A stretch of 64,000 bases of DNA from an uncultured Clostridium sp. GTDB lineage: Bacteria > Bacillota > Clostridia > TANB77 > CAG-508. The stretch covers positions 67,487 to 131,486 of the forward strand of contig CANOVB010000005.1 in the NCBI GenBank assembly GCA_947570695.1, read 5' to 3'. The notes under the pieces are model-generated. The model did not search any database and had not been told where the DNA came from. It worked only from the letters and a program-made list of their open reading frames with translations. The translations under genes were made by a program, and so were the position numbers. Positions 6,471 to 63,340 of this stretch are shown piece after piece (the stretch's first letter is position 1; each line of letters opens with the position of its first letter).

Positions 6471-6749
6471 ATGAACAAAGCTGAATTAATCGCAGCAATA
6501 GCTGCAAAAACAGGAGAAACAAAAAAATCTGCAGAAGAATCTGTAAACGCATTTGTTAGCGTAGTAACAGAATCTTTAACAAAAGGTGAGAAAGTTCAAT
6601 TAGTTGGATTTGGATCTTTTGAAGTAAGAAAAAGAGCAGCTAGAAAAGGAAGAAACCCACAAACTAAAGAAGAAATCAAAATACCTGCATCAAAAGCTCC
6701 AGTATTTAAAGCTGGAAAAGCATTAAAAGATTTAGTAAATAAAAAATAG
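6471..6749 (+). CDS. hup: DNA-binding protein HU
   Basis: [11 protein letters not shown]...[42 protein letters not shown] is the canonical HU/IHF signature. AGGAGG RBS. Confidence 0.97.
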
Positions 6750-6810
6750 GAATTATATAAAGTTTATATGAATTCATAGGAAAGTAGTGCTAAGGTGGCA
6801 CTGCTTTTTT

Positions 6811-7030
6811 ATTTAGTAGAAAAGAGCTATGCATCATACTAAATAAAAGCTTGCGCTAATTTTACACACAAATTTAATAATGCCAATATTAAAAATATTG
6901 ATATACTGATACTGTAATAGCTAAAACTTAAATAGTATTAGTAATTTTGTGTGAGCGAACATTTCTTAATTATGTGAAATGAGCTACAGATAAGTTATTG
7001 CAGAGGAAAGATGTGGACAATTTAGAAAAG
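6811..7030 (+). repeat. Intergenic repeat family IGR-1, copy R1, with an IGR-2 element nested in its module-C hairpin loop
   Basis: Hairpin atttagta..tactaaat, then aaaagcttgcgctaattt, then stem cacacaaatt(6864-6873)/aattttgtgtg(6943-6953) enclosing about 70 nt homologous to 21241-21312. It is followed by ctacagataagttattgcagag, which is shared with copy R2. Confidence 0.7.
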
Positions 7031-7212
7031 TTTTATCTTTTACATATAATATTTAGGCAATTTAGAAAAAAGTTTATTTTGCATATTAAGTATTTTTAGC
7101 TTTGTTTAAAAAATAAGTTTTATAGTTTTCTTGAAAAAACATATAAGTAATGATAACATAATAAAAAACAATTTATTTGTATTTTATTAAAAATAAAGAA
7201 ATGGTGGATATT

Positions 7213-7704
7213 ATGAAAAAAACTCTAAAAGTTATTTGTATAATTTGTGTAATAAGTTTAATTATTCTATTTACAATTAAAAATTTAAAAAAGAGTAATA
7301 ATTTAGAAAGAGATTTTGAAAAAGAACAGCAGGTTTTAGCAATAATAGAGGAAGATAGAAATAATTATATGGGACAAGGTGATGAATATATATCATATTG
7401 GGCTCCTAAACAAGCTATTTTAGATGAAGAAATAGATAAGCTTTTTATAAGACATTTAGAAGAAAAATACTATGAAGAATTAATGAATAATATTTCTAGT
7501 GAAATGAAAGAAAATTCTAGTGAAATTCCAAAAAGTACAAAAAAATTAGTAAGAGAAGCAATAAATTTATATAATGGAAATAAAATTACAGATTATGAAA
7601 AAGAAGTCTTAAAATATATTTTTGAAGGAATATATTTTACAGTTTCCACTGAAGATAGTAAGCTAGCGGATGAATTAAATACAACTGGAATAGAATTTAA
7701 ATAA
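7213..7704 (+). CDS. Hypothetical membrane-anchored protein
   Basis: Preferred start is ATG 7213 (MKKTLKVICIICVISLIILF signal/anchor) after GGTGGA. The ORF track starts at 7177. Confidence 0.6.
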   Translation: MKKTLKVICIICVISLIILFTIKNLKKSNNLERDFEKEQQVLAIIEEDRNNYMGQGDEYISYWAPKQAILDEEIDKLFIRHLEEKYYEELMNNISSEMKENSSEIPKSTKKLVREAINLYNGNKITDYEKEVLKYIFEGIYFTVSTEDSKLADELNTTGIEFK

Positions 7705-7777
7705 AAGTATTGCAAAAAGAAATTAGTAATAATATAATATAAGTGATTTTACAAAGGATAAATGGAGGTGTAGCAAA

Positions 7778-8876: not shown

Positions 8877-9072
8877 TTATATTATAGGAAATTGCTAAAA
8901 AATTCTAAAAGCTTCGCCAAAATTTGAGCACAATTTTACTATGTAAAATTGGTGCAAAAACATTTCTTAGATGTAGCAAATGAAATGAACTACAGATAAG
9001 TTATTGCAGAGAAAAGGAGAGGACATTTGCGTTTGTTTTTTGCAATTATCATAATGTACTCTTTTGTTTTTT
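8877..9072 (+). repeat. Intergenic repeat family IGR-1, copy R2
   Basis: Modules: tattataggaaattgc..., aaaagcttcgccaaaattt, hairpin gcacaattttac-tat-gtaaaattggtgc, ctacagataagttattgcagag, and long stem gagaggacatt...aatgtactcttttgtttt. Confidence 0.7.
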
Positions 9073-9150
9073 AGAAGAATATGCAATTAAATAAAATACA
9101 TTTTAAATATTATTTACTTTTATACTTTTGAGAAAAAATATGATAAAGTA

Positions 9151-9179
9151 TTGACAAACATTAAAAAAAGTAGTAATAT
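9151..9179 (+). promoter_or_regulatory. Sigma-A type promoter of the infC-rpmI-rplT operon
   Basis: TTGACA (9151-9156), 17-nt spacer, TAATAT (9174-9179). Confidence 0.6.
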
Positions 9180-9180
9180 A

Positions 9181-9322
9181 TTAATGTTTTAAGAAGAAGT
9201 ATCCACTTCTCACCTTATCTTAAGTTAAGAGCATAAGGTTAGAATTTAAATAGTTATGATTAATATAATTATTGGAATTAGTATGTGGATTTGGCTTTTT
9301 AAAATAAGTCAAATTTTTTTTT
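9181..9322 (+). promoter_or_regulatory. L20 leader-like attenuator upstream of infC
   Basis: Nested hairpins agaagt/acttct and accttat..cttaa-g-ttaag..ataaggt. A terminator atttggctt(9289-9297)/aagtcaaat(9306-9314) plus T9 sits immediately before the infC RBS. Position and layout match the Firmicute L20-controlled leader. The family assignment was not checked with a covariance model. Confidence 0.55.
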
Positions 9323-9333
9323 GGAGGTGTTTT

Positions 9334-9846
9334 ATTATAAAACAAGAATTGCCTATAAATAGACAAATAAGAGAAAAAGAAGTTCAAGTAATTAGTGATA
9401 CAGGAGAAAAATTAGGAGTTCTTTCTTTAGATGCAGCATTAGAGCTTGCAGAAGAAAAGAATTTAGATTTAGTATTAGTTTCACCAAATGCAAGTCCAGT
9501 AGTTTGTAAATTAATGAACTATGGAAAATACAAATTTGAACAAGCTAAGAAAGAAAAAGAGTCTAGGAAGAATCAAAAAACTGTTGAATTAAAAGAAATA
9601 AGGGTTACTCCTAATATAGGAGACCATGACTTTGGATTTAAAAGTAAAAATGCTAGAGCTTTTTTAGAGGCTGGTAATAAAGTAAAATTTACTGTTAGAT
9701 TTAGAGGAAGAGAATTAAATAATGTTAAAGCTGGTGAAACAGTTTTAAATAAATTTGTTGAAGATTTAGCTGATATTTCAACAGTAGAGAAAAAGCCATT
9801 TTTGGAAGGTAAGACAATGTTTGTAATTTTAACAAAAAAAATATAA
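9334..9846 (+). CDS. infC: Translation initiation factor IF-3 (ATT start codon)
   Basis: ATT at 9334 lies 6 nt after GGAGG (9323-9327). An AUU start is the conserved autoregulatory feature of infC. IIKQELPINRQIREKEVQVI...VCKLMNYGKYKFE is typical IF-3. The ORF-track extension back to 9256 is hydrophobic nonsense. Confidence 0.93.
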   Translation: MIKQELPINRQIREKEVQVISDTGEKLGVLSLDAALELAEEKNLDLVLVSPNASPVVCKLMNYGKYKFEQAKKEKESRKNQKTVELKEIRVTPNIGDHDFGFKSKNARAFLEAGNKVKFTVRFRGRELNNVKAGETVLNKFVEDLADISTVEKKPFLEGKTMFVILTKKI

Positions 9847-9870
9847 AAAAATGTGAAGGGAGATTTCAAA

Positions 9871-10074
9871 ATGCCAAAATTAAAAACAAACAAGGCTGCA
9901 AGTAAGAGATACTCTTATACAGCTAAAGACAAAGTAAAAAGAACAAAAGCTAATAGAAGACATCGTTTAGCTACAAAAACAACAAGACAAAGAAAAACAG
10001 GAAAAATTCAAAATGCATATGCAGATAAAACTGTAGAAGCAGGAATTAAAAGATTATTACCATATGGTAACTAG
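9871..10074 (+). CDS. rpmI: 50S ribosomal protein L35
   Basis: MPKLKTNKAASKRY... ATG 9871 follows GAAGGGAG. The track start at 9853 (GTG) is unlikely. Confidence 0.93.
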   Translation: MPKLKTNKAASKRYSYTAKDKVKRTKANRRHRLATKTTRQRKTGKIQNAYADKTVEAGIKRLLPYGN

Positions 10075-10107
10075 GATTAAATTTAGGATAGAAGGAGTTG
10101 AAAATAA

Positions 10108-10458
10108 ATGGCAAGAGTAAAAACAGCAAGAACAACAAGAGCAAGACATAAAAAAGTATTAAAACAAGCAAAAGGATACTATGGAGCAAAACATTATAGA
10201 TTTAGAAATGCTAAACAAGCAGTTATGAAATCTGGAATGTATGCTTATGTAGGAAGAAAAGATAAAAAATCAGATTTTAGAAAATTATGGATAGTTAGAA
10301 TTAACGCAGCAGCTAGAATGAATGGATTAACATACAGCAAAATGATAGCTGGACTTAAAAAAGCTAATGTAACAATAAATAGAAAAATGTTAGCAGAAAT
10401 AGCTGTTTCAGATAGCAAAGCCTTTGCAGAACTTGCAGAGATTGCTAAAAAAGCATAA
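10108..10458 (+). CDS. rplT: 50S ribosomal protein L20
   Basis: [28 protein letters not shown]... is canonical L20. Confidence 0.97.
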
Positions 10459-10524
10459 AATTAAAAAGTAAATTTGGTAAAAAAATCAAAGGTTATTAAA
10501 AATAATTTTTGATTTTTTTTAATA

Positions 10525-10553
10525 TTGCAAAAATGCCTAGAGTGATATATAAT
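10525..10553 (+). promoter_or_regulatory. Sigma-A type promoter of leuS
   Basis: TTGCAA (10525-10530), 17-nt spacer, TATAAT (10548-10553). It follows the rplT terminator aaaatcaaa...tttgatttttttt. Confidence 0.55.
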
Positions 10554-10589
10554 AAAAAACATCATAATAAAGAAAAGGGAGAGAAAGCT

Positions 10590-13502
10590 ATGGGATATAA
10601 TTTTAAAGAAGTAGAAGAAAAATGGCAAAAAAAATGGTATGAAGAAGGAACTTTTAATGCAAAACAAGATTTTACAAATAAAAAGAAATGGTATGGATTA
10701 ATAGAATTTCCTTATCCATCAGGGCAAGGTCTACATGTAGGACATCCAAGATCTTATACAGCATTAGATATTATTGCAAGAAAGAAAAGAATGGAAGGAT
10801 ATAATGTTTTGTATCCTATTGGTTTTGATGCTTTCGGACTCCCAGCTGAAAATTATGCTATTAAAAATCATGTTCACCCAAAAATAACAACAGAAAATAA
10901 TGTAAATCATTTTAGAGAACAATTAAAATCTTTAGGATTTTCTTTTGATTGGTCAAGAGAAGTAAATACAACAGATCCAGAATATTATAAATGGACACAA
11001 TGGATTTTTATTCAATTATATAAACATGGATTAGCTTATAAAGCTACTATGCCAATTAATTTCTGTACTGGTTGTAAAGTTGGATTAGCAAATGAGGAAG
11101 TTGTTAATGGTGTTTGCGAAAGATGTGGAAGCCCAGTAGTGCAAAAAGAAAAATCACAATGGATGCTTAAAATAACAGAATATGCTCAAAGATTAATTGA
11201 TGATTTAGATGATATAGATTATTTAGATAAAATAAAAGCTCAACAAAAGAATTGGATAGGTAGAAGTGAAGGGGCAGAGGTTAATTTTAAAGTTGCCTCT
11301 GATGAAGATATTATATTTAATAAAGATTCAAAAGTAGAGAAAATTAATTCTAGTGAAAATGATTCTTTATTAATTTATACTACTAGACCAGATACAATAT
11401 TTGGAGCAACATATATGGTTGTAGCTCCAGAACATGAATTAATAAAAAAATATGCAGATAAAATTACTAATTTATCAGAAGTAGAAGAATATAAGAAAAA
11501 AGCTGCTTTAAAATCTGATTTTGAAAGATCAGAGTTAAATAAAGAAAAAACTGGTGTTGAAATTAAAGGACTTAAAGCAATTAATCCATTAACAAATGAA
11601 GCTATTCCAATTTGGATTTCTGATTATGTTTTAATTACTTATGGGACAGGTGCTATTATGGCAGTTCCTGCACATGATGATAGAGATTTTGAATTTGCAA
11701 CTAAATTTAATTTACCTATAAAACAAGTTATTGCACCAGTATTTTATGGAACAGGAGATTCAGAAGTAAGACCAGATAAGAAAAATACAGAAAGAAAAGT
11801 CATTAATGTAGTTGTAAAACATCCAACAGAAAAAAAATTCTTATGTGTAAACAATGATAAATTTGGATTTAAGAATTTTGTTATGGGTGGATTTGAAGGA
11901 GAAGAAACGCCAGTAGAAGCAGCAGCTAGAGAGCTTAGAGAAGAAACTGGTTATACTGATTTTAGAGTGGATTATGTTTTTGATTTTATTTATAAATCAA
12001 AATTTTATGCTGCACATAAAGATGTAAATAGAGATATTACTTGTTATACTGTTGCTGTAACTTTAAATTCATTAAAACAAGAAAAAGTATCAGAAGAAGA
12101 ACAAAAAATTCAATATCCAGTATGGGTAAATGCAGATAAATTAAATGAATATTTAACAACAGAAGAACATATATACACATATTCATTATATGAAAAACCT
12201 CAAGCCTTTACAGATGTTGAAAAAGGAGTTGCTATAAATTCAGATTTCCTAAATGGATTATCTTCAAAAGAAGCTATAAAAAAGGCAACAGATTATATTG
12301 AAGAAAAGAAATTAGGAGAAAGAAAAGTAAATTATAAATTACGTGATTGGGTATTTTCTCGTCAAAGATATTGGGGAGAGCCAATACCAATGGTATATTG
12401 CGAAGATTGTGGCTGGAATCCAATTAAAGAAGAAGAATTACCACTCGTACTTCCAGATATAGAAGATTATGAACCGGGAGAAAATGGAGAGTCACCTTTA
12501 GCAAAACAAACAGAATGGATAAAAACAAAATGTCCATGTTGTGGTAAGGATGCTAAAAGAGAAACAGATACAATGCCACAGTGGGCAGGTTCTTCATGGT
12601 ATTTCCTAAGATATATGGATGCTCATAATAAAGAAGCTTTGGCTTCAAAGGAAGCATTAGAATATTGGTCACCAATAGATTGGTATAATGGAGGAATGGA
12701 GCATACAACACTTCACTTATTATACTCAAGATTTTGGCATAAATTTTTATATGATATTGGTGTTGTTCCAACAAAAGAGCCATATCAAAAACGTACTTCA
12801 CATGGTATGATTTTAGGTGGAAATGGTGAAAAAATGTCTAAATCAAAAGGAAATGTTATAAATCCTGATGATATAGTTAAAGAGTTTGGTGCAGATACTT
12901 TTAGAGTATATGAAATGTTTATGGGACCTTTTGATCAAACAGCACCATGGTCTATGGAATCTATTAGAGGATGTGGCAAATTCTTAGATAGAGTATGGAA
13001 TATGCAAGATATTTTGGTAGACGGAGATGAATATTCTAAAGAGCATGAAAAAATGATGCATAAAGCTATAAAAAAAGTTACTTCAGATATTGAGGAAATG
13101 AAATTTAATACTTCAGTTGCAGAATTTATGAAAATGACAAATGAATTTTATAAGGATAAAAAGATTAATAAGGCAGAATATAAAACATTTTTACAATTAT
13201 TAAATCCATTTGCACCACATATGACAGAAGAATTATTTAATATTCTAGGAGAGACTAAGACAATAAATGAAACACCTTGGCCAAAATATGATGAAGCTAA
13301 AACTATTGATGATGAAATAGAAATACCAGTACAAGTAAATGGAAAGGTAAAAGCTGTTATTACTGCTAATAAAGAAGCTTCTCAAGAAGAAGTTAAGGCT
13401 ATAGTAGATAGTAATGAAATAATTAAAAATGCTTTGGCAGGAAAAAATGTAGTAAAAGAAATTTATGTAAAAGGAAAAATATACAATATAGTAGTTAAAT
13501 AA
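10590..13502 (+). CDS. leuS: Leucyl-tRNA synthetase carrying an internal Nudix-domain insertion (11733-12227)
   Basis: Start is ATG 10590 ([16 protein letters not shown]) after AAGGGAGAG. HIGH-type [13 protein letters not shown], two CxxC...CxxC zinc knuckles, and the editing-domain blocks [19 protein letters not shown] and [14 protein letters not shown] Nudix box [23 protein letters not shown] lies at 11886-11954. Confidence 0.95.
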
Positions 13503-13578: not shown

Positions 13579-13920
13579 TATATAATAAAAGATTGCTTTC
13601 AGATTTCTATTATATAAAGCTTTAAGTAAAAGTTGGGCACGATTTTATAAAATAAAATCAGAATATATAGTATTTTTAGATGTAAAAAATGCGCAGATAG
13701 GTTATTGAAGAAAAAAGATGAGGATATTTGCATTTTTACAATTATTATAGTGTCCGCTTTAATCCTATAATAGGAATTTGCTTAGTAATTTCTATTATAG
13801 AATAACTTTTCTAAAATTTGTACACAATTTTACTATGCAAAATTGACACGGAAACAAATACGAGGATATTGGCATTTAGTTTTTACTTTTGCAATTATTA
13901 TAATATTCACTTTTGTTCTT
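13579..13920 (+). repeat. Intergenic repeat family IGR-1, two tandem copies (R3a about 13579-13762, R3b about 13765-13920)
   Basis: Each copy begins with a tataata(g/a)ga...tctattata hairpin. R3b has acaattttac-tat-gcaaaattg and the long stem gaaacaaatacgaggatatt...aatattcacttttgttctt. Confidence 0.7.
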
Positions 13921-13996
13921 ATTTAAATAAAAATATGTTGATACTATGAAAACTGAATTTTAATAGTATAAAATGGAGAATATAAAAATTTATATT

Positions 13997-19255: not shown

Positions 19256-21205
19256 ATGGATAAATATTTAAAATTATTAAGTAAAACTTATAAAAATATT
19301 CAAGAAGTTAGTGAAGAAATTATAAATCTTCAAGCAATTTTAAACCTTCCAAAAGGAACAGAATTGTTTTTAAGTGATATTCATGGAGAATATGAAGCAT
19401 TTATACATATTCTTAATAATGGTTCAGGTATAATAAAAAGTAAAATCGAAGATATATATGAAAAAACATTGGATGAAGAAAGTAGAAAAGATTTAGCAAC
19501 TTTAATTTATTATCCAGAAGAAAAACTTAATATGATAAAAAAAGAAAAAAGTAATTTAAATGAATGGTATAAAATTACTTTATATAGATTAATTGAGGTA
19601 ACTAAGGCTGTGAGCTCAAAATATACTCGTTCAAAGGTAAGAAAGGCAATGCCTAAGGGGTTTGATTATATAATAGATGAACTTTTACATCTTCAAGGAG
19701 AAGATGCAAACAAAGAAAAATATTATAAACAGATTGTTGAAAGTATTATTGATTTAAATAGAGCAGATAATTTTATTGTAGCAATTTCTGAATTAATTAA
19801 AAGAATGGCAATAGATCATTTGCATATAGTTGGAGATATTTATGATAGGGGACCAGGAGCCCCGATTATAATGGATAAATTAATGGATTTCCACAGTTTG
19901 GATATAGAATGGGGAAATCATGACATACTTTGGATGGGAGCTGCTACTGGAAATGAAGCATGTATTAGTAATGTTGTAAGAATTTGTAGTAGATATGATA
20001 ATTTAGCAACATTAGAAGAAGGGTATGGAATTAATATTAGACCATTATCAATTTTTGCAACTGAAATGTACAAAGATGATGAATGCAAAGCATTTCTTCC
20101 AAGAAATAAGGAAATGTCTAAATATAGTAATACTGATAAAATTGTTTTATCAAAAATTCAAAAAGCAATATCAGTAATTCAATTTAAAGTAGAAGGACAG
20201 CTTATAAAGAAACATCCAGAATATAAAATGAAAGATAGATTACTACTTGACAAGATTGATTTTGAAAAAGGAGTAGTAAAAATAGATGGTAAAGAATATA
20301 AATTAAATGATATTAATTTTCCTACTATAGATATAAAAAATCCATATAAACTAACAAAAGAAGAAAAAGAAATTATGGAAAGATTAAAAAATTCTTTTAT
20401 GCATAGTGAAAAATTAAATGCTCATGTTAATTTTCTATATTCTAAAGGGCATGTTTATAAAAAATTTAATTCTAATATATTATTTCATGGTTGCATACCA
20501 ATGAAGGAAAATGGAGAATTTGATAAAGTAGAAATTTTAGGCAAATCACTAAAAGGCAAAGAACTATTAGATCATATAGAAAATGTTGCACATAAAGCTT
20601 ATTTTGGAGAGCCAAATGAGGCAAATCAAGAAGCAATAGATTTAATGTGGTATTTTTGGTGCGGTCCAAAATCACCATTATTTGGTAAAGACAAAGCCGC
20701 TACTTTTGAGAGATATTTCCTTGATGAAAAAGAGCTACATAAAGAGCATAAAAATCCTTATTATAGTTTAATAAATAGCGAAGAAATTTGTGATAAAATA
20801 TTAGAAAACTTTGAAACAAGTATTGAAGAGGGACATATAATAAATGGGCATGTACCAGTAAAAGCGAAAGATGGAGAAAGTCCTGTAAAAGCTGGTGGAA
20901 AAATGATAGTTATTGATGGTGGTTTTGCAAAAGCATATCAACCAACCACTGGAATTGCTGGTTATACATTGACTTATAATTCACACGGATTGGTTTTAGC
21001 AATGAATGAACCTTTTGAATCAAAAGCAAAAGCTATAAAAGAAGGATTAGATATTAGAACTCAAACAGTTTTAAAAGAAGATGTTGTAAGTAGAAAAAGT
21101 GTTGCTGATACAGATATAGGAAAAAAATTGCAAGAAGAGATTTCAGATTTAAAACAATTATTAATTGCATATAGAGAAGGTGTTTTAAAAGAAAATTTAC
21201 AATAA
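19256..21205 (+). CDS. fbp: Fructose-1,6-bisphosphatase class 3
   Basis: MDKYLKLLSKTY...LSDIHGEYEAF...VGDIYDRGP...WGNHD are metallophosphatase motifs in the class-3 FBPase context. ATG 19256 follows AAAGGAGA. Confidence 0.92.
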   Translation: MDKYLKLLSKTYKNIQEVSEEIINLQAILNLPKGTELFLSDIHGEYEAFIHILNNGSGIIKSKIEDIYEKTLDEESRKDLATLIYYPEEKLNMIKKEKSNLNEWYKITLYRLIEVTKAVSSKYTRSKVRKAMPKGFDYIIDELLHLQGEDANKEKYYKQIVESIIDLNRADNFIVAISELIKRMAIDHLHIVGDIYDRGPGAPIIMDKLMDFHSLDIEWGNHDILWMGAATGNEACISNVVRICSRYDNLATLEEGYGINIRPLSIFATEMYKDDECKAFLPRNKEMSKYSNTDKIVLSKIQKAISVIQFKVEGQLIKKHPEYKMKDRLLLDKIDFEKGVVKIDGKEYKLNDINFPTIDIKNPYKLTKEEKEIMERLKNSFMHSEKLNAHVNFLYSKGHVYKKFNSNILFHGCIPMKENGEFDKVEILGKSLKGKELLDHIENVAHKAYFGEPNEANQEAIDLMWYFWCGPKSPLFGKDKAATFERYFLDEKELHKEHKNPYYSLINSEEICDKILENFETSIEEGHIINGHVPVKAKDGESPVKAGGKMIVIDGGFAKAYQPTTGIAGYTLTYNSHGLVLAMNEPFESKAKAIKEGLDIRTQTVLKEDVVSRKSVADTDIGKKLQEEISDLKQLLIAYREGVLKENLQ

Positions 21206-21231
21206 ATGTTATATAAAAGATTCAACAAATA

Positions 21232-21335
21232 TTATATGCAAATTAAATGATGTCAATATTAAAATGTTGATATACTGATGCAGGAAAAGTTAAAACTTAA
21301 CAGTATTAGTAACTTGATATACAAACAAATTTTGA
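21232..21335 (+). repeat. Intergenic repeat family IGR-2 (free-standing copy)
   Basis: About 78 nt (21241-21312) align at roughly 80% identity by eye with 6870-6945, e.g. caatattaaaa(t/a)(g/a)ttgatatactgat...taaaacttaa(c/at)agtattagtaa. Confidence 0.7.
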
Positions 21336-21475
21336 AGGAGAATAAAATAAATTATAAATAAATTATGGAAACACAAGTAAATTAATTAAATAAAGCTCAT
21401 ATAAACATAAAATTAATTAGTTAAATAAATTATGGAAAAAAGTAAAATAAAATTGAATGTATAGAAAAATTATTA

Positions 21476-21522
21476 GAAAAGAGAAAAACCCATAAAATAA
21501 GCGAGTTTTTCTCTTTTTTTCT
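21476..21522. terminator. Rho-independent terminator about 270 nt downstream of fbp
   Basis: aaaagagaaaaac-N15-gtttttctctttt followed by a T-run. Confidence 0.7.
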
Positions 21523-21648
21523 AAGTCAAACTATTGACATTTTTTGTAAAAAAAGATATAAATATACATATAAAAGTGAAATAAAATGTGATATTATATG
21601 TTTATGTAAAAAAATGTGTTTTTTTACTGTAAACAAAGGAGAAATGTA

Positions 21649-23262
21649 ATGTTAAGCTGTTTGGGAATTTATGTAGATAAAAACTTAATAAAATACGCAA
21701 AATTAAAAAAGAACAAAGATACATTAAAAGTTGAAGCTTTTAATGTTGAAGCTTTTGAGAATTTAGATGTTGCATTAAAAAAAGTTATAAATGAAACAAA
21801 CAGTTCAAGAATTCCAATAAGTATAAATATATCAGATGAGCTTTACAATTATTTTGAAGTATTCTCAGTTTTAGAAAAAAAGGATATTACAAAATCTTTA
21901 GATATAGAATTTGAAATGTTATGTGATTCAAGAGGATATGATAAAAGTTTGCTTGAATCAAGATATATTTTAATGGAAAACAAAAATAATTATGATAAAT
22001 ATAAATCATTATATATATCTGCAAATAAAAATGAAATAGATAGAAAATTGAGTATTCTTTCAGAGTATAAATTAGCTTCAATGACACCAGTTTCAACAAG
22101 TATAACAAATCTTATTGAACCAAAACAGGGCGAAAATATTGCAATTATTAATATAGAAAATGAAACAAAAATTACAACTATAATAGATGGTCAAATTAGT
22201 AGAGTTGATGTTTTAAATTCAGGAATGGATGAGATATCACAAAAAATAAATAAAATAGAATTATCATGGAAAAAAGCTTATGATGTGTATAAAAATATTA
22301 CAATTTATGCTCATGAAGTTTTAAGCTTAGAAGAAGATGAGAATGAATATATAGATATTGTAATGCCAGTTTTATATAAAATAGCAAATGAATCAAAAAA
22401 AATAATTAATACTTCTAAAGATAGAATAGACAAAGTTTATATAACAGGTACAGGTGCAACAATTAATAATGTTGATTTATATTTCCAAGAGTTTTTTAAA
22501 AAAGCAAAATGTGAAATATTAAAACCATTTTTTATTGATTCTAGTTCTTTAAAAGTACCAGCAAAAGAATATATAGAAGTAAATTCTGCTATTGCACTTG
22601 CCTTAGATGGATTAGGGTATGTAAATAAAGATTTAAATTTTGCACCAGTATCCAAATTTGATAATATAGATATTGAAACAATAATGAATTCTAAAGATAA
22701 TATAGATTTTAAAAATTGGAAAAATTCATTTAAATCACCTTTTGATATACAAGAAAAAATGATAGCAAGAGGAATTGCAGTATTTTTAATAGCAACTATT
22801 GGTTTTTCTGTAATGGGAACTAGTATTATGAATCAAATAAGTTTGCAAAAAGATGAAGCAAAAGAACAGCTAACTCAAACTATTGCTCAAATATCAACAA
22901 TGGAGAGTGAACTTTCAAGAATAGAAAGTCAGACCAATCAATATGCTACTTTGATTAATAGCGTAGATTCTTTAAATGAAGCAAATGCTAGTGTTCAAAA
23001 TAGTAGAATAATATCTAAAGGTGCTATACCAAATTTATTAACAAGAATAATGTTTATAATACCGCAACAAGTACAAGTTATTTCAATAGAAAATAAAGAA
23101 GGTAAACATATTATTATAGAGGCTGTATCAGAAAAATATGAACAATTAGGTTACTTTTCAGCTGCAATAAAAAATGATGGTATGCTTCAAAATATTCAAT
23201 CAACAAGTGCTACAAAAAGTGATTCACTTGTTCAAATTACAATAGAAGGAGATTTACCATGA
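21649..23262 (+). CDS. Type IV pilus assembly protein, PilM-PilN fusion
   Basis: N-terminal actin-like ATPase-fold region (LGIYVDKNLIKYAKL..., ITGTGATINN), then a TM segment (IAVFLIATIGFSVMG) and a coiled coil, as in clostridial PilMN. ATG 21649 follows AAAGGAGA. Confidence 0.7.
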   Translation: MLSCLGIYVDKNLIKYAKLKKNKDTLKVEAFNVEAFENLDVALKKVINETNSSRIPISINISDELYNYFEVFSVLEKKDITKSLDIEFEMLCDSRGYDKSLLESRYILMENKNNYDKYKSLYISANKNEIDRKLSILSEYKLASMTPVSTSITNLIEPKQGENIAIINIENETKITTIIDGQISRVDVLNSGMDEISQKINKIELSWKKAYDVYKNITIYAHEVLSLEEDENEYIDIVMPVLYKIANESKKIINTSKDRIDKVYITGTGATINNVDLYFQEFFKKAKCEILKPFFIDSSSLKVPAKEYIEVNSAIALALDGLGYVNKDLNFAPVSKFDNIDIETIMNSKDNIDFKNWKNSFKSPFDIQEKMIARGIAVFLIATIGFSVMGTSIMNQISLQKDEAKEQLTQTIAQISTMESELSRIESQTNQYATLINSVDSLNEANASVQNSRIISKGAIPNLLTRIMFIIPQQVQVISIENKEGKHIIIEAVSEKYEQLGYFSAAIKNDGMLQNIQSTSATKSDSLVQITIEGDLP

Positions 23263-28587: not shown

Positions 28588-28614
28588 CCCCGCCACTATG
28601 GCGGGGTTTTATTT
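28588..28614 (+). terminator. Rho-independent terminator of the GC-rich cassette
   Basis: ccccgcca-cta-tggcgggg followed by ttttattt. Confidence 0.85.
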
Positions 28615-28615
28615 A

Positions 28616-28870
28616 TATAATAGGAAATTCCTATAGAATTCCTATTATATAAAGCCTTCGGCAACATTTCACAGAAAAATTGCTATGCAATTTTTTGCGG
28701 GCGAACAAAGACGAGCCACTTAAATACACTAAAATGTTTGAGAATTTTAAAAGTGGCTCTTTTGTTCTTTAATAGAAAAGTGCTCTGTACTTTTATTAGA
28801 TAAAGCTTTCATCGACTTTATACAGAAAAACGATAAAGCAATTTTTTATAATATAAAGAAGTTGCCAAAA
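28616..28870 (+). repeat. Intergenic repeat family IGR-1, copy R5a (28616-28770) plus truncated R5b (28771-28870)
   Basis: taataggaaattc..gaattcctatta hairpin, ataaagccttcggcaacattt, gaaaaattgc-tat-gcaatttttt hairpin, and long stem gaacaaagacgagccactt...aagtggctcttttgttc. The second unit begins aatagaaaagtgctctgtacttttatt gataaagctttc. Confidence 0.75.
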
Positions 28871-37195: not shown

Positions 37196-37435
37196 CATAG
37201 TAAAAAAGGCGTTTGATTAAGAATTAAGTAGTAAATAAACTTTTTAAAAGAGAGCTTATGGTTGGTGAGAATAAGTAAAAGAATTTACGAAATCTACTCT
37301 TAAGAGTTTCTAGAAAACTAGACCGAGTTATTGCAGGTTATAGCAATTTGAAAGATGGATTAGATTAATCTAAAAAAGGTGGTACCGCGATATATTCGCC
37401 CTTATGTATTTTTTACATGGGGGCGTTTTTGTTTA
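37196..37435 (+). promoter_or_regulatory. T-box leader, probable Ser (UCU) specifier
   Basis: T-box sequence aaaaaaGGTGGTACCGCG (37372-37389). Terminator cgcccttatgta-ttttt-tacatgggggcg plus T5 (37397-37430). Stem-I AGAGA and GGTGAGA elements. The specifier-loop candidate is GAAA-TCT-A (TCT at 37293-37295). serS is the third gene downstream. Confidence 0.85.
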
Positions 37436-57560: not shown

Positions 57561-57597
57561 AAAAAAGATATTTACATTTTTGTAAATATCTTTTTTA
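57561..57597 (+). terminator. clpB terminator
   Basis: aagatatttac-attttt-gtaaatatctt followed by a T-run. Confidence 0.8.
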
Positions 57598-57600
57598 TTT

Positions 57601-57808
57601 AATAGGGAAGTGCTTTGCACTTCCCTATTAAATAAAGCTTTCAGCAACTTTGTGCAGAAAAAATTCAAAGAAATTTTTCGCACATCGAACAAAGACGAGG
57701 GCATTTGCAATAAATTTTGTCTTTTTCAATTTTCATAATGCCTTCTTTTGTTCTTATATGACATTTGCTTTTATATTTTTCAATTATAATAATGTCCTTT
57801 TGAGTTCT
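57601..57808 (+). repeat. Intergenic repeat family IGR-1, copy R6 (best-preserved full copy plus an extra module D)
   Basis: Module A: aatagggaagtgc-ttt-gcacttccctatt (57601-57629). Module B: aaataaagctttcagcaactttg. Module C: gtgcagaaaaaattc-aaa-gaaatttttcgcac (57652-57683). Module D: gaacaaagacgagggcatt...aatgccttcttttgttc (57687-57754). Module D': gacatttgc...aatgtccttttgagttct (to 57808). Confidence 0.8.
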
Positions 57809-57825
57809 AATTTAAACATATTTAA

Positions 57826-60800
57826 TTAGTTTCCATCTGAAATTTTATAAACAATATTAAAATATTCAAATTTATCTGTTTCATTATTATATAGACAATC
57901 TAAATAAGAATTTAATTCTACAATATTTTTACAAGCTGTTATTATTGCTGGATTTAGATTAGAAGTAAACATTAAATCTAATCCTAAGTCTATAGCTGCA
58001 CGAATTGATGATTTTTCTTTTACTCTCATAAGAGTATAAGCCTCTTTGAAACGGGCAGATATAGGATTTTTATATACAGAAAGTGGAACAGTATATTCAT
58101 TTTCTATAACATCATCTACTGTTTTATATTTTTCAGAACCATTAAGTTTTTCACCAATTTCTTCTGAAGTATAAGGTAAGTACACTTTTTGAGTTTCTTC
58201 TGAAATTAGAAGAGTATTGCAATCATAAATTGATGAGACTAAAGCTTCTTCTTCATTTTCTAATTTTGAAATTATATCAGATAAAGAATCCATCATTTTA
58301 AATAAATCACTAGCAGGATCATTATCTATATCTATTTCAGAACTAATATCATTTTGGATATCTATTCTGTTTAAAGTATCAATATTATCGAAATTATTTC
58401 CTTCATTAAAGAATTCAGCAACATCAGTATGTTGAACATTAGTTTCTTTATCAATTTCAATATCAATATTTTCTTCACTAAATTCTTCACTAATACCAAA
58501 ATCTTCTTTATTTAAATTTTCACTACAATAGGTGATTTCTTCATTAGCATTGTAAATATCTTCTGAAGAATTATTTTGAATTTTACCATTTTCTTCATTA
58601 ATATTTTTTTCAACTGGTGCTCCAACTGTTAAAATTTCATTTTCAACATCTGATTCAAGCTCTATTTTTTCTGAAGTATTATCTAAGTCAAAAGAAACAT
58701 TTAATGTATTAGAAGACTCAAAAGATAAAACTTCTGTTAATAATTCCTCTTTCATCTTTTCATCAATATCACATTCAGATGAAGAAAGTTTTTCTTCAAA
58801 AATACTTTCTATGCTAGAAGCCTCATCATTAACTATATCTGATTCAGCAATAGTTTCTATATCTTTAATGTAATTTACATTTTCGGCTTCATTATCTAAA
58901 CTAGAGATATCATCATTTATATTGTCTATTTTAGTTGGAACTACGATGTTGTTATAGTAAGTAGCTTCATCATTAAGTGATAAATCATCAGAAATAGGGG
59001 AAGGAGCTACCTGAACTTCTGGTACAGCAACAGTATTAGCTGCAGCTACTTCTTGAATGGCTTCTAATGGTTTGGCAGTTGGTTCAAAATTATTTAAAAC
59101 ATTATGAATATCATTTTTCAATGAATTAACATCTGTTTGTAAGAAACTGTTTCCAAATGGTGTATTTAAGTTTGAATTTATAAAATTAGTTTCATCAAAA
59201 CTGAATTTTTTAAATATATTTGAAAATGCAGGAGTTGAAGATTTAGAACTTTCAGGTTTTGAAAAGCCTATTACATCCGTATTAATACTGCCAGCTACTT
59301 CAAAGGATAATTTATTTGTTAAATTAGTAGATGTTTCATCAATATTATTAAATGGAATAATGTTATCTGCTGCTTCATCTAAAACTACTCCATTTGTATA
59401 GTCATCATTTTCTATAGATGAATTTTCTTTTTCATAAAAATTTTCAGAAGGTAGTATATCATAATTATTAAAGTATATATTTAAATCTATATCTTTATCT
59501 TGAACTTCAACTTTATCTGAAGTTTCAGTTACTTCATCAATATTATCAATAACTTCTTCTTGTGTATCGCTTAAAATTTCATTTGCTTCATAACTAGTTT
59601 CAGAATCGTTTTGTATATCGCCTAAAGTTTTATCTACTTCATAGTTAGTTTTAGAATCTTCTTGTGTATTATCTGAAATTTCATTTGATTCATAATTAGT
59701 TTCATCTTGAATATTATTTGAAACTTCATTTATTTCGGAAATATTTTGTATATAATCATTAACATCATTTATAACTTCATCTTCAGAATTAATAGAATAG
59801 TCGTCAATTTTGTTAGTAATTTCAGCACAATCAGAGCTATTTAAATTGTCTACTTCCTCATCAATAATTTCAACTTCTGAATTAGTTTCAATTAAAGAGT
59901 CATATTCTTTTTCAATTTCTAATTCAGTATCAACATCAGCTTCAGAAACAACAATATCAAGTCCATTATCTATATCTCCAAGTAGAGGAGAATAATCGTT
60001 TCCTATTGAAGTTTTCACTTTACTAATATCAATAATTTTATCTGAATTTATATTTCCATCATTAATAGAATTTTCATTTTCTTCAACAATTTCTCCAGTA
60101 ATGTTGAATATATCTGAAATTTCTGTATCTATAATATTTGTAACATCATCTGAATTTGTTTCATTAATAATAGAATTATCAGAGATTTCTGCTTGATCAT
60201 TTGTTATATCATCAAAAGAGCAAATATCTTCAATTAAATCAGAAGAGTTATCTTCGATTTCTGTAATTACATTATTAATAGCAGATGCAATTTCTGATTC
60301 AATATCATAAGTTTCATCTGTTTTTATATTATCAACTTCTTCGATAGTAGAGGTATAGATATCATCAGTTTCGTTTTCTGAGTCTGTAACTGTAATATCA
60401 AATTTTTTAAATACAGAAGGTTCATAGAAAAATGTTGCATTTTGATTTATAGAAGAATCCTTTTTTGTGGATGCGCTAGAAACAACAGGTGTAACAACTA
60501 GAAGTGGCACATCTTGTAGTGGAACTTCTTTTTTTTCATTTGCAACTCCATTAACAGGTTCTTTAAATTCTTCTTTAACTGTTTCTTTATTTTTCCCTAA
60601 ATTTAAACAAAGATTTCTTTTTCTAGAATTGCCTTTTTTTACTATATCTGGTCTTATAATACTATGCTTAATTGCAGAATTTATAGAGACTGTAGGCAAT
60701 ACTTCAGGCTCTATTTTTACATTTTCTTTTTTTGGTTTAGAGACTTTTTCTGTAGTTTTTTTCTTAGTGTCTACAGTTGTTTTTTTGGCAGTAGTTTTTT

Positions 60801-60891
60801 TACTAATTTTTAATGTTGGTTTTGATTTTGATTTTGCTTTAGATTTTGATCCTGCTTTTTTTTCAACTGCTTTTGCGGATTTTGTTACCAT
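57826..60891 (-). CDS. 1021-aa protein with a lysine-rich N-terminus, a roughly 750-aa D/E/N/S/I-rich low-complexity core and a roughly 150-aa ordered C-terminal domain
   Basis: GGAGG RBS. N-terminus KSAKAVEKKAGSKSKAKSKSKPTLKISKKTTAKKTT. Tandem roughly 16-aa repeats (TNYESNEISDNTQEDSK / TNYEVDKTLGDIQNDSE / TSYEANEILSDTQEE). C-terminus ...YLPYTSEEIGEKL...NPAIITACKNIVELNSYLDCLYN. Confidence 0.75.
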   Translation of the reverse strand: MVTKSAKAVEKKAGSKSKAKSKSKPTLKISKKTTAKKTTVDTKKKTTEKVSKPKKENVKIEPEVLPTVSINSAIKHSIIRPDIVKKGNSRKRNLCLNLGKNKETVKEEFKEPVNGVANEKKEVPLQDVPLLVVTPVVSSASTKKDSSINQNATFFYEPSVFKKFDITVTDSENETDDIYTSTIEEVDNIKTDETYDIESEIASAINNVITEIEDNSSDLIEDICSFDDITNDQAEISDNSIINETNSDDVTNIIDTEISDIFNITGEIVEENENSINDGNINSDKIIDISKVKTSIGNDYSPLLGDIDNGLDIVVSEADVDTELEIEKEYDSLIETNSEVEIIDEEVDNLNSSDCAEITNKIDDYSINSEDEVINDVNDYIQNISEINEVSNNIQDETNYESNEISDNTQEDSKTNYEVDKTLGDIQNDSETSYEANEILSDTQEEVIDNIDEVTETSDKVEVQDKDIDLNIYFNNYDILPSENFYEKENSSIENDDYTNGVVLDEAADNIIPFNNIDETSTNLTNKLSFEVAGSINTDVIGFSKPESSKSSTPAFSNIFKKFSFDETNFINSNLNTPFGNSFLQTDVNSLKNDIHNVLNNFEPTAKPLEAIQEVAAANTVAVPEVQVAPSPISDDLSLNDEATYYNNIVVPTKIDNINDDISSLDNEAENVNYIKDIETIAESDIVNDEASSIESIFEEKLSSSECDIDEKMKEELLTEVLSFESSNTLNVSFDLDNTSEKIELESDVENEILTVGAPVEKNINEENGKIQNNSSEDIYNANEEITYCSENLNKEDFGISEEFSEENIDIEIDKETNVQHTDVAEFFNEGNNFDNIDTLNRIDIQNDISSEIDIDNDPASDLFKMMDSLSDIISKLENEEEALVSSIYDCNTLLISEETQKVYLPYTSEEIGEKLNGSEKYKTVDDVIENEYTVPLSVYKNPISARFKEAYTLMRVKEKSSIRAAIDLGLDLMFTSNLNPAIITACKNIVELNSYLDCLYNNETDKFEYFNIVYKISDGN

Positions 60892-61132: not shown

Positions 61133-61663
61133 ATGGCAGATAGTCCAGAAGTAATAGAGGCAAGAGAGAAAAGGGATGATAGAGATTTTTTCTTAAGTAG
61201 AGTTGAAGAAATGCCAAATTTAATTGAGTGGGCAAATGATCAAATACGTGATGATAAAGAAGTTATTATGAAGGCAATTAAATCTGATGGTGGGGCATTG
61301 GAGTTTGCAAGTAATAGGCTTAAAGATGATAAAGAAGTTTTATTAGAAGCAGTTAGCCAGTCAGGATGGACTTGCTGTTATGCTAGTGAAAAGTTGAAGA
61401 CTGATAAAGATGTTCTTTTAACAGCTTCAAAAAATGATGGACAAGTTTTATATTTTGCAAGCAAAGAACTTAGAGATGATAAAGATGTAGTACTTGCTGC
61501 AGTAGAAAATAAACCTATTATTTTAAAATATGCAAGTTTTAGATTAAGAAATGATAAAGAAGTAGCTATAAAAGCTGTTAGTAAAGCTAAGAAAAAAGTT
61601 TGGGATTATATTTCTCCTGAACTTAGAGAAGACGAAGAGATAAAGAAATTGTTAGAAGAATAG
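61133..61663 (+). CDS. DUF4116 repeat protein
   Basis: Five copies of a roughly 30-aa repeat D(D/K)KEV(I/L/V)..A(I/V)...G.(A/V)L.(F/Y)AS..L(K/R)(D/N)D. ATG 61133 follows AAAGGAG. Confidence 0.75.
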   Translation: MADSPEVIEAREKRDDRDFFLSRVEEMPNLIEWANDQIRDDKEVIMKAIKSDGGALEFASNRLKDDKEVLLEAVSQSGWTCCYASEKLKTDKDVLLTASKNDGQVLYFASKELRDDKDVVLAAVENKPIILKYASFRLRNDKEVAIKAVSKAKKKVWDYISPELREDEEIKKLLEE

Positions 61664-61690
61664 AATAAAAGAGGATATTATAATAATTGT

Positions 61691-61815
61691 AAAAACAAAA
61701 CTAAATGATAATGATGTCATCTTTGTTGTGTGTGCTGATTTTATTTTATAAAATTGTATACAAATTTTGATGAAGCTTTTTTATAGAAATTGCAGAGCAA
61801 TTTACTATAATATAA
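61691..61815 (-). repeat. Intergenic repeat family IGR-1, copy R7 (inverted orientation, short form)
   Basis: The reverse complement reads tattatagtaaattgc-tct-gcaatttctataa aaaagcttcatcaaaatttgtatacaattttataaaataaaatcag...aacaaagatgac...ttttgttttt; compare R3a. Confidence 0.65.
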
Positions 61816-62154: not shown

Positions 62155-63340
62155 ATGATATTCAAAGTTATATATATGTTTTTTGCTGGCTATGTTAATT
62201 TAGCGATTGAAGGATTTTTTATTGAACGATTTATAAATATTTGTAGAAGCAAAAACATTATTCTTCAAGATTTACATAGAGAAAATAATAGTTACATAAA
62301 GGCTAAAATTTTAAAATCTGATTTTAAAGAGATTAGACATATTGCCAAAAGAACAAAATGTAAAGTAAAAATAGAGAGGAAATTAGGGATCCCATTTTTG
62401 ATTAATAAATATAGAAAAAGAAAGATATTTGCAGTTGCGTTTTTGGTGATTGCAATTTCTATTTTTGCTCTTACAAAGTTTATTTGGAATATAGAAGTTG
62501 TTGGAAATGAAAATATTTCAAGAGAAGAAATCATAAATTTAGTTAGTGAATATGGCATCAAGGTTCGGAAAATTAAAGTCTAATATTAATATAGAAAAAG
62601 CTAGTAATTTAATTAGAATGGAAAGAGATGATTTATCTTGGATAGGAATTAATATAAAAGGGACAAATGCTATAATAACTATTAAAGAATCAATTAAAAT
62701 GCCAGAAATAATAGACAAAAATGAAATTTGCAATATTGTAGCTACAAAAGATGCTTGTATATCAAAATTAGTTGTACAAAATGGTACAGCAAGAGTTAAT
62801 GTTGGAGATGAAGTAAAAAAAGGTGATTTATTAGTGGAAGGAGTTATGGAAAGCGAACTTACAGGAAATAGATTTGTTCATGCAGAAGCTGATGTTTTTG
62901 GAAAAATATATTATCAAAAAGAAAAAAAAGAAACTTTTGTGCAAAATGAAAAAATAAAAACAGGAAATGAGGAACAAAAAAATGAAATTTGTATAAATAA
63001 TTTTAAAATAAATTTTAATAAAGGGGTTTCAAAATTCGAAAATTATGATACAATAACTTCAAGTAAAAAAATCAAGTTATTTTCTAATTTTTATATACCA
63101 ATAGAAATAAAACATATCACTAATGTCGAAATAGAAAATAGAATGAAAACATACTCTGAAGAGGAACTGAAGGAAAAAATACAAAAAGAATTAGAAGAGG
63201 AGTTAGAAAAGGAATATAAAATTTCAGAAATTGATGAGAAAAACAAGAAAAGAGAAGTAATTACAAATACAGAAGATGACGGAATTACTTTAACTTTAAT
63301 GTATGAAATACAAGAAGAAATTGGTATAAAGGCAAATTAG
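62155..63340 (+). pseudogene. yqfD: Sporulation protein YqfD interrupted by a 1-nt frameshift near 62560-62566 (or a sequencing indel)
   Basis: ORF 62155-62583 is the N-terminal half (GYVNLAIEGFFIERFINICRSKNI..., one TM, ...LVSEYGIK). ORF 62546-63340 in the next frame continues FGKLKSNINIEKASNLIRMERDDLSWIGINIKGTNAIITIKES. Skipping one g in atcaagGttc restores a roughly 395-aa YqfD-length protein. Confidence 0.75.

Follow-up and report, generated by a model that had tools for sequence, protein, structure and literature searches.

IGR-2, an AT-rich segment of 55 to 75 nt, most likely does not constitute a free-standing repeat family in its own right. It was found twice in the 64,000-nt stretch of DNA analyzed here (the window), both times enclosed by a stem, once within an IGR-1 mosaic repeat 3' of hup and once 3' of fbp. 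The explanation that we favor, tentatively and just short of calling it probable, is that IGR-2 is a long-loop module, optional within the mosaic IGR-1 family, that was gained at the tip of a hairpin and was copied together with its stem and leader. The sequences themselves are undescribed, but hairpin repeats built of modules, with a unit that is nested or optional, are a well-known kind.

The source genome is that of an uncultured, low-GC, sporulating Clostridia bacterium. The G+C content is 24 to 34% across the window, and the GC skew is positive almost throughout. The sporulation genes spoVAC/AD/AE adjoin fbp, yabP and yqfD are also inside the window, and an SASP gene is located just 3' of it, in a flanking locus (L047). 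A glmS ribozyme and a T-box are also present in the window. The HU protein of the window has a match of at least 90% identity that is titled "MAG: HU family DNA-binding protein [Clostridia bacterium]," and contig NODE_73 of ENA assembly ERZ14864678 is 99.99 to 100% identical to the window over two overlapping stretches. Sequences of 9.9 kb and 8.6 kb were added beyond the window, bringing the total for this genome to ~82.5 kb.

Some other features of the window were recorded. The leucyl-tRNA synthetase gene (10509 to 13502, + strand) encodes a product of 970 to 997 amino acids with a NUDIX Pfam match listed inside it; the leuS products of the relatives have 808 to 847 amino acids and no NUDIX match. 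The yqfD gene exists as two overlapping ORFs (62155 to 62583 and 62546 to 63340, + strand; 142 and 262 to 264 amino acids), both of which match PF06898 in all samples and which may represent a frameshift or a split gene. A pair of direct repeats (36356 to 36456/36759 to 36859 and 36459 to 36508/36847 to 36896; ~100 to 150 nt, 76% identical, with ~400-nt spacing) lies in the spacer 5' of the T-box (37203 to 37406) and is unrelated to IGR-1 and IGR-2. Four tandem units of ~45 to 51 nt (59555 to 59749) are located within a minus-strand ORF (57826 to 60891) of 1,021 amino acids and no recorded Pfam match, which may encode a repetitive surface protein.

The repeat R1 (6811 to 7038, + strand) follows the hup gene (6471 to 6749, + strand; Pfam Bac_DNA_binding) and its intrinsic terminator (6785 to 6811, + strand), in which a T run follows a G+C-rich stem of 7 bp that includes one G-T pair. 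The automatic terminator scan made no + strand call at this terminator, its single match there being on the minus strand (6802 to 6786); the hairpin is also kept in three relatives (L050, L062, and L063). The module C stem of R1 consists of a 17-nt inverted repeat (88% complementary) with the left arm CACACAAATTTAATAAT (6865 to 6881, + strand) and the right arm ATTAGTAATTTTGTGTG (6937 to 6953, + strand), and the repeat search placed 55 nt between the arms. The right arm overlaps the 3' arm of a second hairpin within the enclosed segment, and the two pairings are therefore alternatives. The original prediction had described this stem as cacacaaatt/aattttgtgtg around an unusually long loop, and that is what the sequence contains: the arms are present at 6865 to 6874 and 6943 to 6953, and the 10-nt arms enclose 68 nt, whereas the other IGR-1 copies have 3 to 5 nt here (tat in R2, R3b, and R4a).

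The extra segment was tested by in silico excision, an approach taken from work on pneumococcal repeats that are nested in one another (Croucher et al. 2011, PMC3049150). With an IGR-1 HMM trained without R1, intact R1 was matched only at 6811 to 6876 (10.9 bits, E value of 0.014), whereas R1 without 6881 to 6939 was matched across HMM positions 2 to 143 (24.8 bits, E value of 7.7e-7). The pairwise alignment of R1 and R2 is likewise strong on both sides of the insert. Since excision restores the profile match across the hairpin and R1 and R2 align on both sides, R1 is confirmed to be an IGR-1 copy carrying ~59 extra nt at the hairpin tip. In the MAFFT alignment, the insert columns relative to the short-loop IGR-1 copies correspond to ~6881 to 6939 (59 nt).

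That segment recurs 3' of fbp. Copy 1 (6871 to 6944, + strand) and copy 2 (21241 to 21312, + strand; 36 nt past the fbp stop codon, covariance model score of 103.9 bits) are 83.8% identical over 74 nt (blastn within the window, E value of 7e-15), so the alignment of ~80% that had been made by eye proved to be significant when computed. Together with the excision test, it bears out a discrete extra segment inside an IGR-1 hairpin that occurs again 3' of fbp. The longest exact match between the copies is the 13-nt block TTGATATACTGAT, and both cassette junctions are identical (CAAATT | ... AGTAA |). The composition of the cassette is extreme (~20 to 25% G+C), which is the one point in favor of a chance match in AT-rich DNA; such a match was ruled out, with practically no probability left to it, by the blastn E value and by a register that is kept across three helices.

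For two known copies, "family" is a generous word. No other blastn match in the window was better than an E value of 0.008, and the nhmmer profile of the IGR-2 pair found only the two known places in the window, the next match having an E value of 0.59. IGR-2 thus has two known copies in ~82.5 kb of this genome. When 205 kb, made up of the window, both of its flanks, and six loci of relatives, was searched with a covariance model, no third copy was detected, and no IGR-2 was found in ~120 kb of sequence from relatives. Of the "second repeat family" that had been proposed, therefore, a real second copy remains, with just two copies in all and no third in these 205 kb. The pattern GATATACTGATN{15,30}AGTATTAGTA matched 6 times in species-representative genomes and 16 times in JGI metagenomes, and all of these were chance matches as judged by nhmmer and composition; because the pattern scans of genomes and metagenomes missed even the known loci, they are hardly informative on how many copies this organism has. 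Two IGR-2 and two IGR-1 patterns gave only chance matches in viral contigs, and R1 had no blastn match in plasmid and phage collections. No ORF of at least 30 amino acids spans either IGR-2 copy, and the tiny ORFs over the copies differ in frame between them.

Copy 2 follows fbp (19256 to 21205, + strand), which encodes a class 3 fructose-1,6-bisphosphatase (PF06874) whose exact 649-amino-acid sequence is present on 20 contigs. It had been described as free-standing, but it is located inside an 8-bp stem at the same junctions, and its left flank matches R1 in register. The 5' arm of this stem (UAUAU-g-CAA; 21233 to 21241, + strand) was obtained with RNAfold and the 3' arm (UUG-AUAUA; 21315 to 21322, + strand) with both RNAfold and the consensus fold; relative to the R1 stem in the consensus fold, two C-G pairs have become U-A, with both sides changed and no pair broken. 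The left flank tatataaaagattcaacaaatattatatgc (21206 to 21240, + strand) resembles IGR-1 module B and the left stem arm and is identical to R1 (6836 to 6870) at 23 of 35 positions in register (empirical P value of 7e-5 over all window positions). The repeat search likewise found 76% identity between 6840 to 6894 and 21210 to 21264. On the right, the resemblance to R1 is marginal (29 of 60 positions in register; P value of 0.01, rising to 0.04 when AT-rich windows are the reference); locally, the best match there, AAATGAGCTACAGATAAGTTAT versus AAATAAATTATAAATAAATTAT, has identical offsets and lies where R1 has an optional 45-nt module of IGR-1. With the same stem and a left flank that is homologous in register, no known copy of IGR-2 lies outside a hairpin-tip context, and the unit shared by the two loci would be at least ~110 to 118 nt (leader, stem, and cassette) rather than the loop insert alone.

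The fbp-side host is probably a decayed, G/C-depleted IGR-1 copy, its flanks having 16% G+C compared with 23 to 33% in other IGR-1 copies. The IGR-1 profile HMMs did not match the flanks of copy 2, and after in silico excision of the cassette the locus had an E value of 19 (0.7 bits) against a profile of the R1/R2/R3a subtype; this would be because the flanks are strongly decayed. Unanchored searches with the flanks gave only noise-level matches that were not significant. As the profiles miss these flanks, the identity of the host as IGR-1 comes from the anchored pairwise comparison only. The first terminator-like hairpin 3' of fbp is an inverted repeat followed by a T run (21470 to 21524, + strand; 20-nt arms, 85% complementary in the repeat search), and the automatic terminator scan of 21100 to 21700 called nothing. 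Since copy 2 precedes this hairpin, it would sit in the fbp 3' UTR. Also 3' of copy 2, the 17-nt sequence TAAATAAATTATGGAAA is repeated exactly in direct orientation (21355 to 21371 and 21422 to 21438, 67 nt apart), followed by the terminator-like inverted repeat, and the entire ~300 nt have no counterpart in the relatives.

The host family is itself modular. IGR-1 is present in nine to ten copies in the 64 kb, all but one of them oriented like the + strand genes. A profile built from six copies matched at 8878 to 9042, 13580 to 13743, 13766 to 13922, 28614 to 28770, 28767 to 28844 (partial), 57597 to 57758, and 61658 to 61813 (minus strand). The shared parts are a leading palindrome, an "ataaagctt" leader, the module C hairpin, and a large terminal hairpin. 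In module C, the stem sequence varies from copy to copy while the pairing is kept and the loop is 3 to 5 nt. A module of ~45 nt is found only in R1, R2, and R3a, and the cassette, as a variable module, only in R1 and copy 2; IGR-1 is thus a mosaic with optional parts. All IGR-1 and IGR-2 copies are located between ORFs and are hairpin forming. R4a and R5 (28614 to 28770 and 57597 to 57758) show extreme folding (z scores of -6.7 and -8.4), and the other copies are decayed. Relatives carry IGR-1 members at other sites, e.g., after rplT (L050, 14590 to 14646), and these differing sites suggest that IGR-1 is or was mobile.

Several observations argue for the cassette as an optional module of this mosaic: it occupies the same stem position at both loci, where two double changes and one single change leave the pairing intact; IGR-1 already has another optional module, of ~45 nt; and the hup-site hairpins of relatives have unrelated loops of 11 and 16 nt. 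Against it stand the number of known copies, only two, the failure of the IGR-1 HMMs to recognize the flanks of copy 2, and a degree of conservation in the cassette that exceeds that of the flanks and that of every IGR-1 pair. Between the loci, 49 of 57 cassette positions are identical, compared with 30 of 44 in the left flank and 46 of 83 in the right (49/57 versus 76/127; Fisher P value of 3e-4). The difference lies at G/C sites, of which the cassette retains 10 of 12 (~77 to 83%) and the flanks 6 of 34 (~18 to 22%; P value of 9e-5), while A/T sites (39/45 versus 70/93; P value of 0.18) do not differ significantly. A mutation bias from G/C to A/T was rejected as the sole cause of the gap on the basis of these two comparisons. 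Other IGR-1 pairs with comparable A/T-site identity retain 49 to 67% of their G/C sites, and no two IGR-1 copies in the window are as alike as the two cassettes. This contrast suggests that the cassette is either younger than its hosts, through a second insertion or transfer into the same tip, or constrained while the fbp-side host decays. A one-time neutral duplication of the composite is therefore insufficient, and the module explanation needs either constraint on the cassette or its later arrival.

Later arrival is what would be expected if IGR-2 were a separate small nonautonomous mobile element (MITE- or PATE-like) that was inserted twice independently into module C tips and that targets the hairpin or the loop, as some insertion sequences target REP palindromes. 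We consider this possible but rather unlikely. The divergence of the cassette is about one-third that of its hosts in the A/T as well as the G/C class, the junctions of the two copies are identical, both sites lack the cassette in the nearest relatives, and there are precedents in the insertion sequences that target REPs (PMC1525189) and in the BOX, RUP, and SPRITE repeats, which are inserted into one another (PMC3049150). However, only two copies are known and none is in another context, and the left-flank homology reaches ~35 nt past the stem. The ends of the 55-nt core do not form an inverted repeat; the sole inverted repeat is the module C stem, which is also present in IGR-1 copies without the cassette. 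Its TA-rich junctions (TAATAATG ... TATTAGTAAT in R1 and AAATGATG ... TATTAGTAAC in copy 2) allow several readings of a target-site duplication, none of which is identical on both sides in both copies, and the CAAATT that precedes both copies is, with n = 2 and homologous flanks, indistinguishable from shared ancestry. No transposase Pfam match was found among the 20 window ORFs scanned, and neither 10 loci from other samples nor a 98.5%-identical strain (over 12 kb) showed a filled/empty polymorphism. Against the mobility that the original prediction had drawn from the nesting stand the absence of terminal inverted repeats in the cassette proper, of a clear target duplication, of filled and empty alleles, and of a transposase in those 20 ORFs. 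The idea of separate dynamics fares better, given how much more of the cassette than of its flanks is conserved, but constraint would fit this equally well. Both of the alternatives that the original prediction had offered, an optional structured domain and one element inside another, are kept here as readings.

Constraint is the core of another explanation, which we regard as unlikely, namely, that the stem and cassette form a functional three-way-junction RNA under purifying selection 3' of hup and fbp, perhaps as a 3'-UTR element for stability or processing, perhaps as a small RNA. The internal palindrome originally noted in the insert is present in copy 1 (CAATATT-AAA-AATATTG, 6884 to 6900) but imperfect in copy 2 (CAATATT-AAAA-TGTTG, 21254 to 21269). 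In the predicted + strand RNA, it corresponds to hairpin 1 of copy 1 (CAAUAUU-AAA-AAUAUUG, in both the minimum free energy [MFE] and consensus folds) and of copy 2, where the loop is minus one A and a U-A pair has become U-G. Hairpin 2 is predicted at 6904 to 6943 in copy 1 (+ strand; UACUGAUACUGU ... AUAGUAUUAGUA), with G-U pairs that form on the + strand only, and at 21273 to 21311 in copy 2 (+ strand), where an A-U pair has become G-U and the distal part is altered. The enclosing stem and the two hairpins give a predicted three-way junction in the sense fold of each copy.

The sense folds of copies 1 and 2 have energies of -22.6 and -16.4 kcal/mol (z scores of -4.1 and -2.9 versus shuffles), and the antisense folds have energies of -16.0 and -8.7 kcal/mol (z scores of -1.8 and +0.2); the asymmetry arises because several of the pairs are G-U, which form on the sense strand only, and it favors an RNA domain. 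The two-sequence consensus has 23 pairs, and all seven of the paired columns that differ keep pairing, including two double changes (CG to UA) and three changes to or from a wobble pair. Within the cassette, 2 of 36 consensus-paired columns differ, compared with 10 of ~32 unpaired ones (manual count). Also in favor of an RNA domain, the G/C positions retained (10 of 12) are mostly in stems while the flank G/C decayed, and both copies are oriented like the upstream gene. The pairing-preserving changes are only suggestive of structure, since there are two sequences and the structure was derived from the same two, and since copy 2 loses two distal pairs of hairpin 2 if the MFE structure of R1 itself is imposed on it. 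Furthermore, Rfam 15 gave no family match at gathering thresholds or at E values of up to 10, copy 1 sits after the hup terminator, and the cassette is absent from the same intergenic regions of all sampled relatives, which argues against a conserved regulator of hup or fbp.

Two other structural candidates were rejected. The hammerhead resemblance (CUGAU...GAAA; core CUGANGA) does not hold, as R1 has CUGAUAC and copy 2 CUGAUGC, with G8/A9 not kept, and there is no Rfam match. The complementarity of 6913 to 6929 with 7028 to 7044 (15 of 17) also arises in 2.2% of shuffles, and nothing convincing corresponds to it at copy 2.

A cassette that serves as a portable promoter is very unlikely. The block TTGATATACTGAT, the longest exact match between the copies, carries an extended -10 element (TGaTATACT) on the + strand, and both copies contain TTGGCA/TTGACA-16-TAAAAT/TAATAT on the minus strand, facing back into the upstream gene; promoter-like matches were found at 6880 to 6907 (+ strand), 6886 to 6859 (minus strand), and 21256 to 21229 (minus strand). 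However, promoter-like hexamers show no enrichment over shuffles in regions this AT rich (9 versus 6.0 ± 2.2 and 4 versus 6.1 ± 2.3), the + strand spacer is 16 nt in one copy and 15 nt in the other, and both downstream genes have better-placed promoter-like sites of their own, that of the gene after fbp being conserved in relatives.

Both loci recur unchanged in several other metagenome samples. Among the 10 loci fetched from same-species contigs, 9 were identical, and the remaining one (L004) differs at one base in the hup-side spacer. In the strain that is 98.5% identical over 12 kb (L045), the hup-side spacer, including R1 and R2, is unchanged. Of the 200 differences from that strain, 194 fall in one 2.5-kb patch (9000 to 11500) that spans infC-rpmI-rplT and the start of leuS and looks like a recombination import.

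In the related species, the sites differ. At fbp, the nearest relatives (fbp protein 85 to 88% identical) have spacers of 123 to 177 nt in which the downstream promoter is kept and copy 2 is absent, along with the ~300 nt that contain it. At hup, one relative has no repeat, and two have IGR-1-type elements directly after the conserved terminator, with unrelated hairpin loops of 11 and 16 nt and no cassette. Both cassette sites are thus lineage specific, and hairpin tips here probably turn over quickly. A match of hairpin 2 to the hup-side element of one relative (L063; tatagctaaactta) was rejected as not significant (shuffle P value of 0.3). A 163-amino-acid ORF (7213 to 7704, + strand), with an N-terminal signal or membrane anchor, shares with R1 a 917-nt segment (6794 to 7709) for which three related species have no counterpart between hup and the following gene; a homologue search among 5.8 billion proteins returned only the ORF itself.

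Compared with known systems, IGR-1/IGR-2 works like the BOX/BIME-type families but is a member of none, with no homology to a described family (BOX, BIME, ERIC, or Correia) detected via Rfam or the plasmid and phage collections. It shares with those families separable modules in different combinations and an intergenic, hairpin-forming character. The pneumococcal BOX, RUP, and SPRITE repeats are likewise intergenic and hairpin forming, and BOX is a composite with variable module content (PMC3049150). However, there is no sequence relationship, the hosts differ at the phylum level, and BOX and RUP occur in hundreds of copies with MITE-like ends, whereas only two copies of IGR-2 are known and it lacks ends of its own. 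The REP/BIME arrays of enterobacteria and pseudomonads resemble IGR-1 as mosaic arrays of palindromic units just 3' of genes, and REP palindromes are documented insertion targets of IS1397, ISKpn1, IS621, and ISPpu9/10 (PMC1525189, PMC3333891). REPs, in contrast, are short and G+C rich, and the elements known to insert into them are complete insertion sequences that encode a transposase, unlike the 55-nt noncoding cassette. With respect to REP-RAYT and IS200/IS605 PATE systems, neither a RAYT nor a Y1 transposase was present among the 20 scanned window ORFs; such elements are marked by subterminal hairpins, by a lack of terminal inverted repeats and target duplications, and by a conserved short target sequence on their 5' side, and although the cassette has two internal hairpins with CAAATT 5' of both copies, shared ancestry would look the same with n = 2 and homologous flanks. 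The likeness to MITE or foldback elements consists of 17-nt inverted arms around a short noncoding core (~89 nt overall) and of orthologous sites that are empty in relatives. However, these arms are the stem of the host repeat itself and differ between the copies, no parent insertion sequence is known, and the cassette lacks terminal inverted repeats of its own. Two copies are known in the ~82.5 kb of this genome.

Under the favored explanation of an optional IGR-1 module, a cassette of ~55 to 60 nt with two hairpins would fill the apical loop of module C in two IGR-1 members, the hairpin tip being a site of rapid sequence turnover. The cassette would have arisen or been captured once at such a tip and would have reached the second locus together with the enclosing stem and the left-hand leader once the lineage had separated from the nearest relatives sampled; in the alternative direction, the short-loop copies may be collapsed derivatives. 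On the sense strand, the cassette would convert a simple hairpin into a three-way junction. Copy 2 would belong to the fbp 3' UTR, and copy 1, being just beyond the hup terminator, would belong to read-through RNA. There, the cassette would add 3' RNA structure of the REP/BIME/BOX type, with transcript-end stabilization or attenuation, or would simply be tolerated; the effect on RNA ends is one that we infer by analogy with those repeats. It is improbable, though worth stating, that the cassette has a life of its own, either as a miniature element copied specifically into the tips of DNA or RNA hairpins of another repeat family or as a selected three-way-junction domain grafted onto a selfish hairpin repeat. 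The former would involve structure-directed targeting by an element that lacks ends of its own; under both, the cassette would stay intact while the host copy decays.

Nested repeats explain the lineage-specific intergenic expansions beside hup and fbp, and in practice they should be masked or modeled when small RNAs and 3' UTRs are annotated in these genomes. If the cassette is indeed targeted to hairpin tips or selected as RNA, it would be a compact case of modular intergenic repeats gaining parts and would provide a handle on repeat dynamics in an uncultured lineage of Clostridia.
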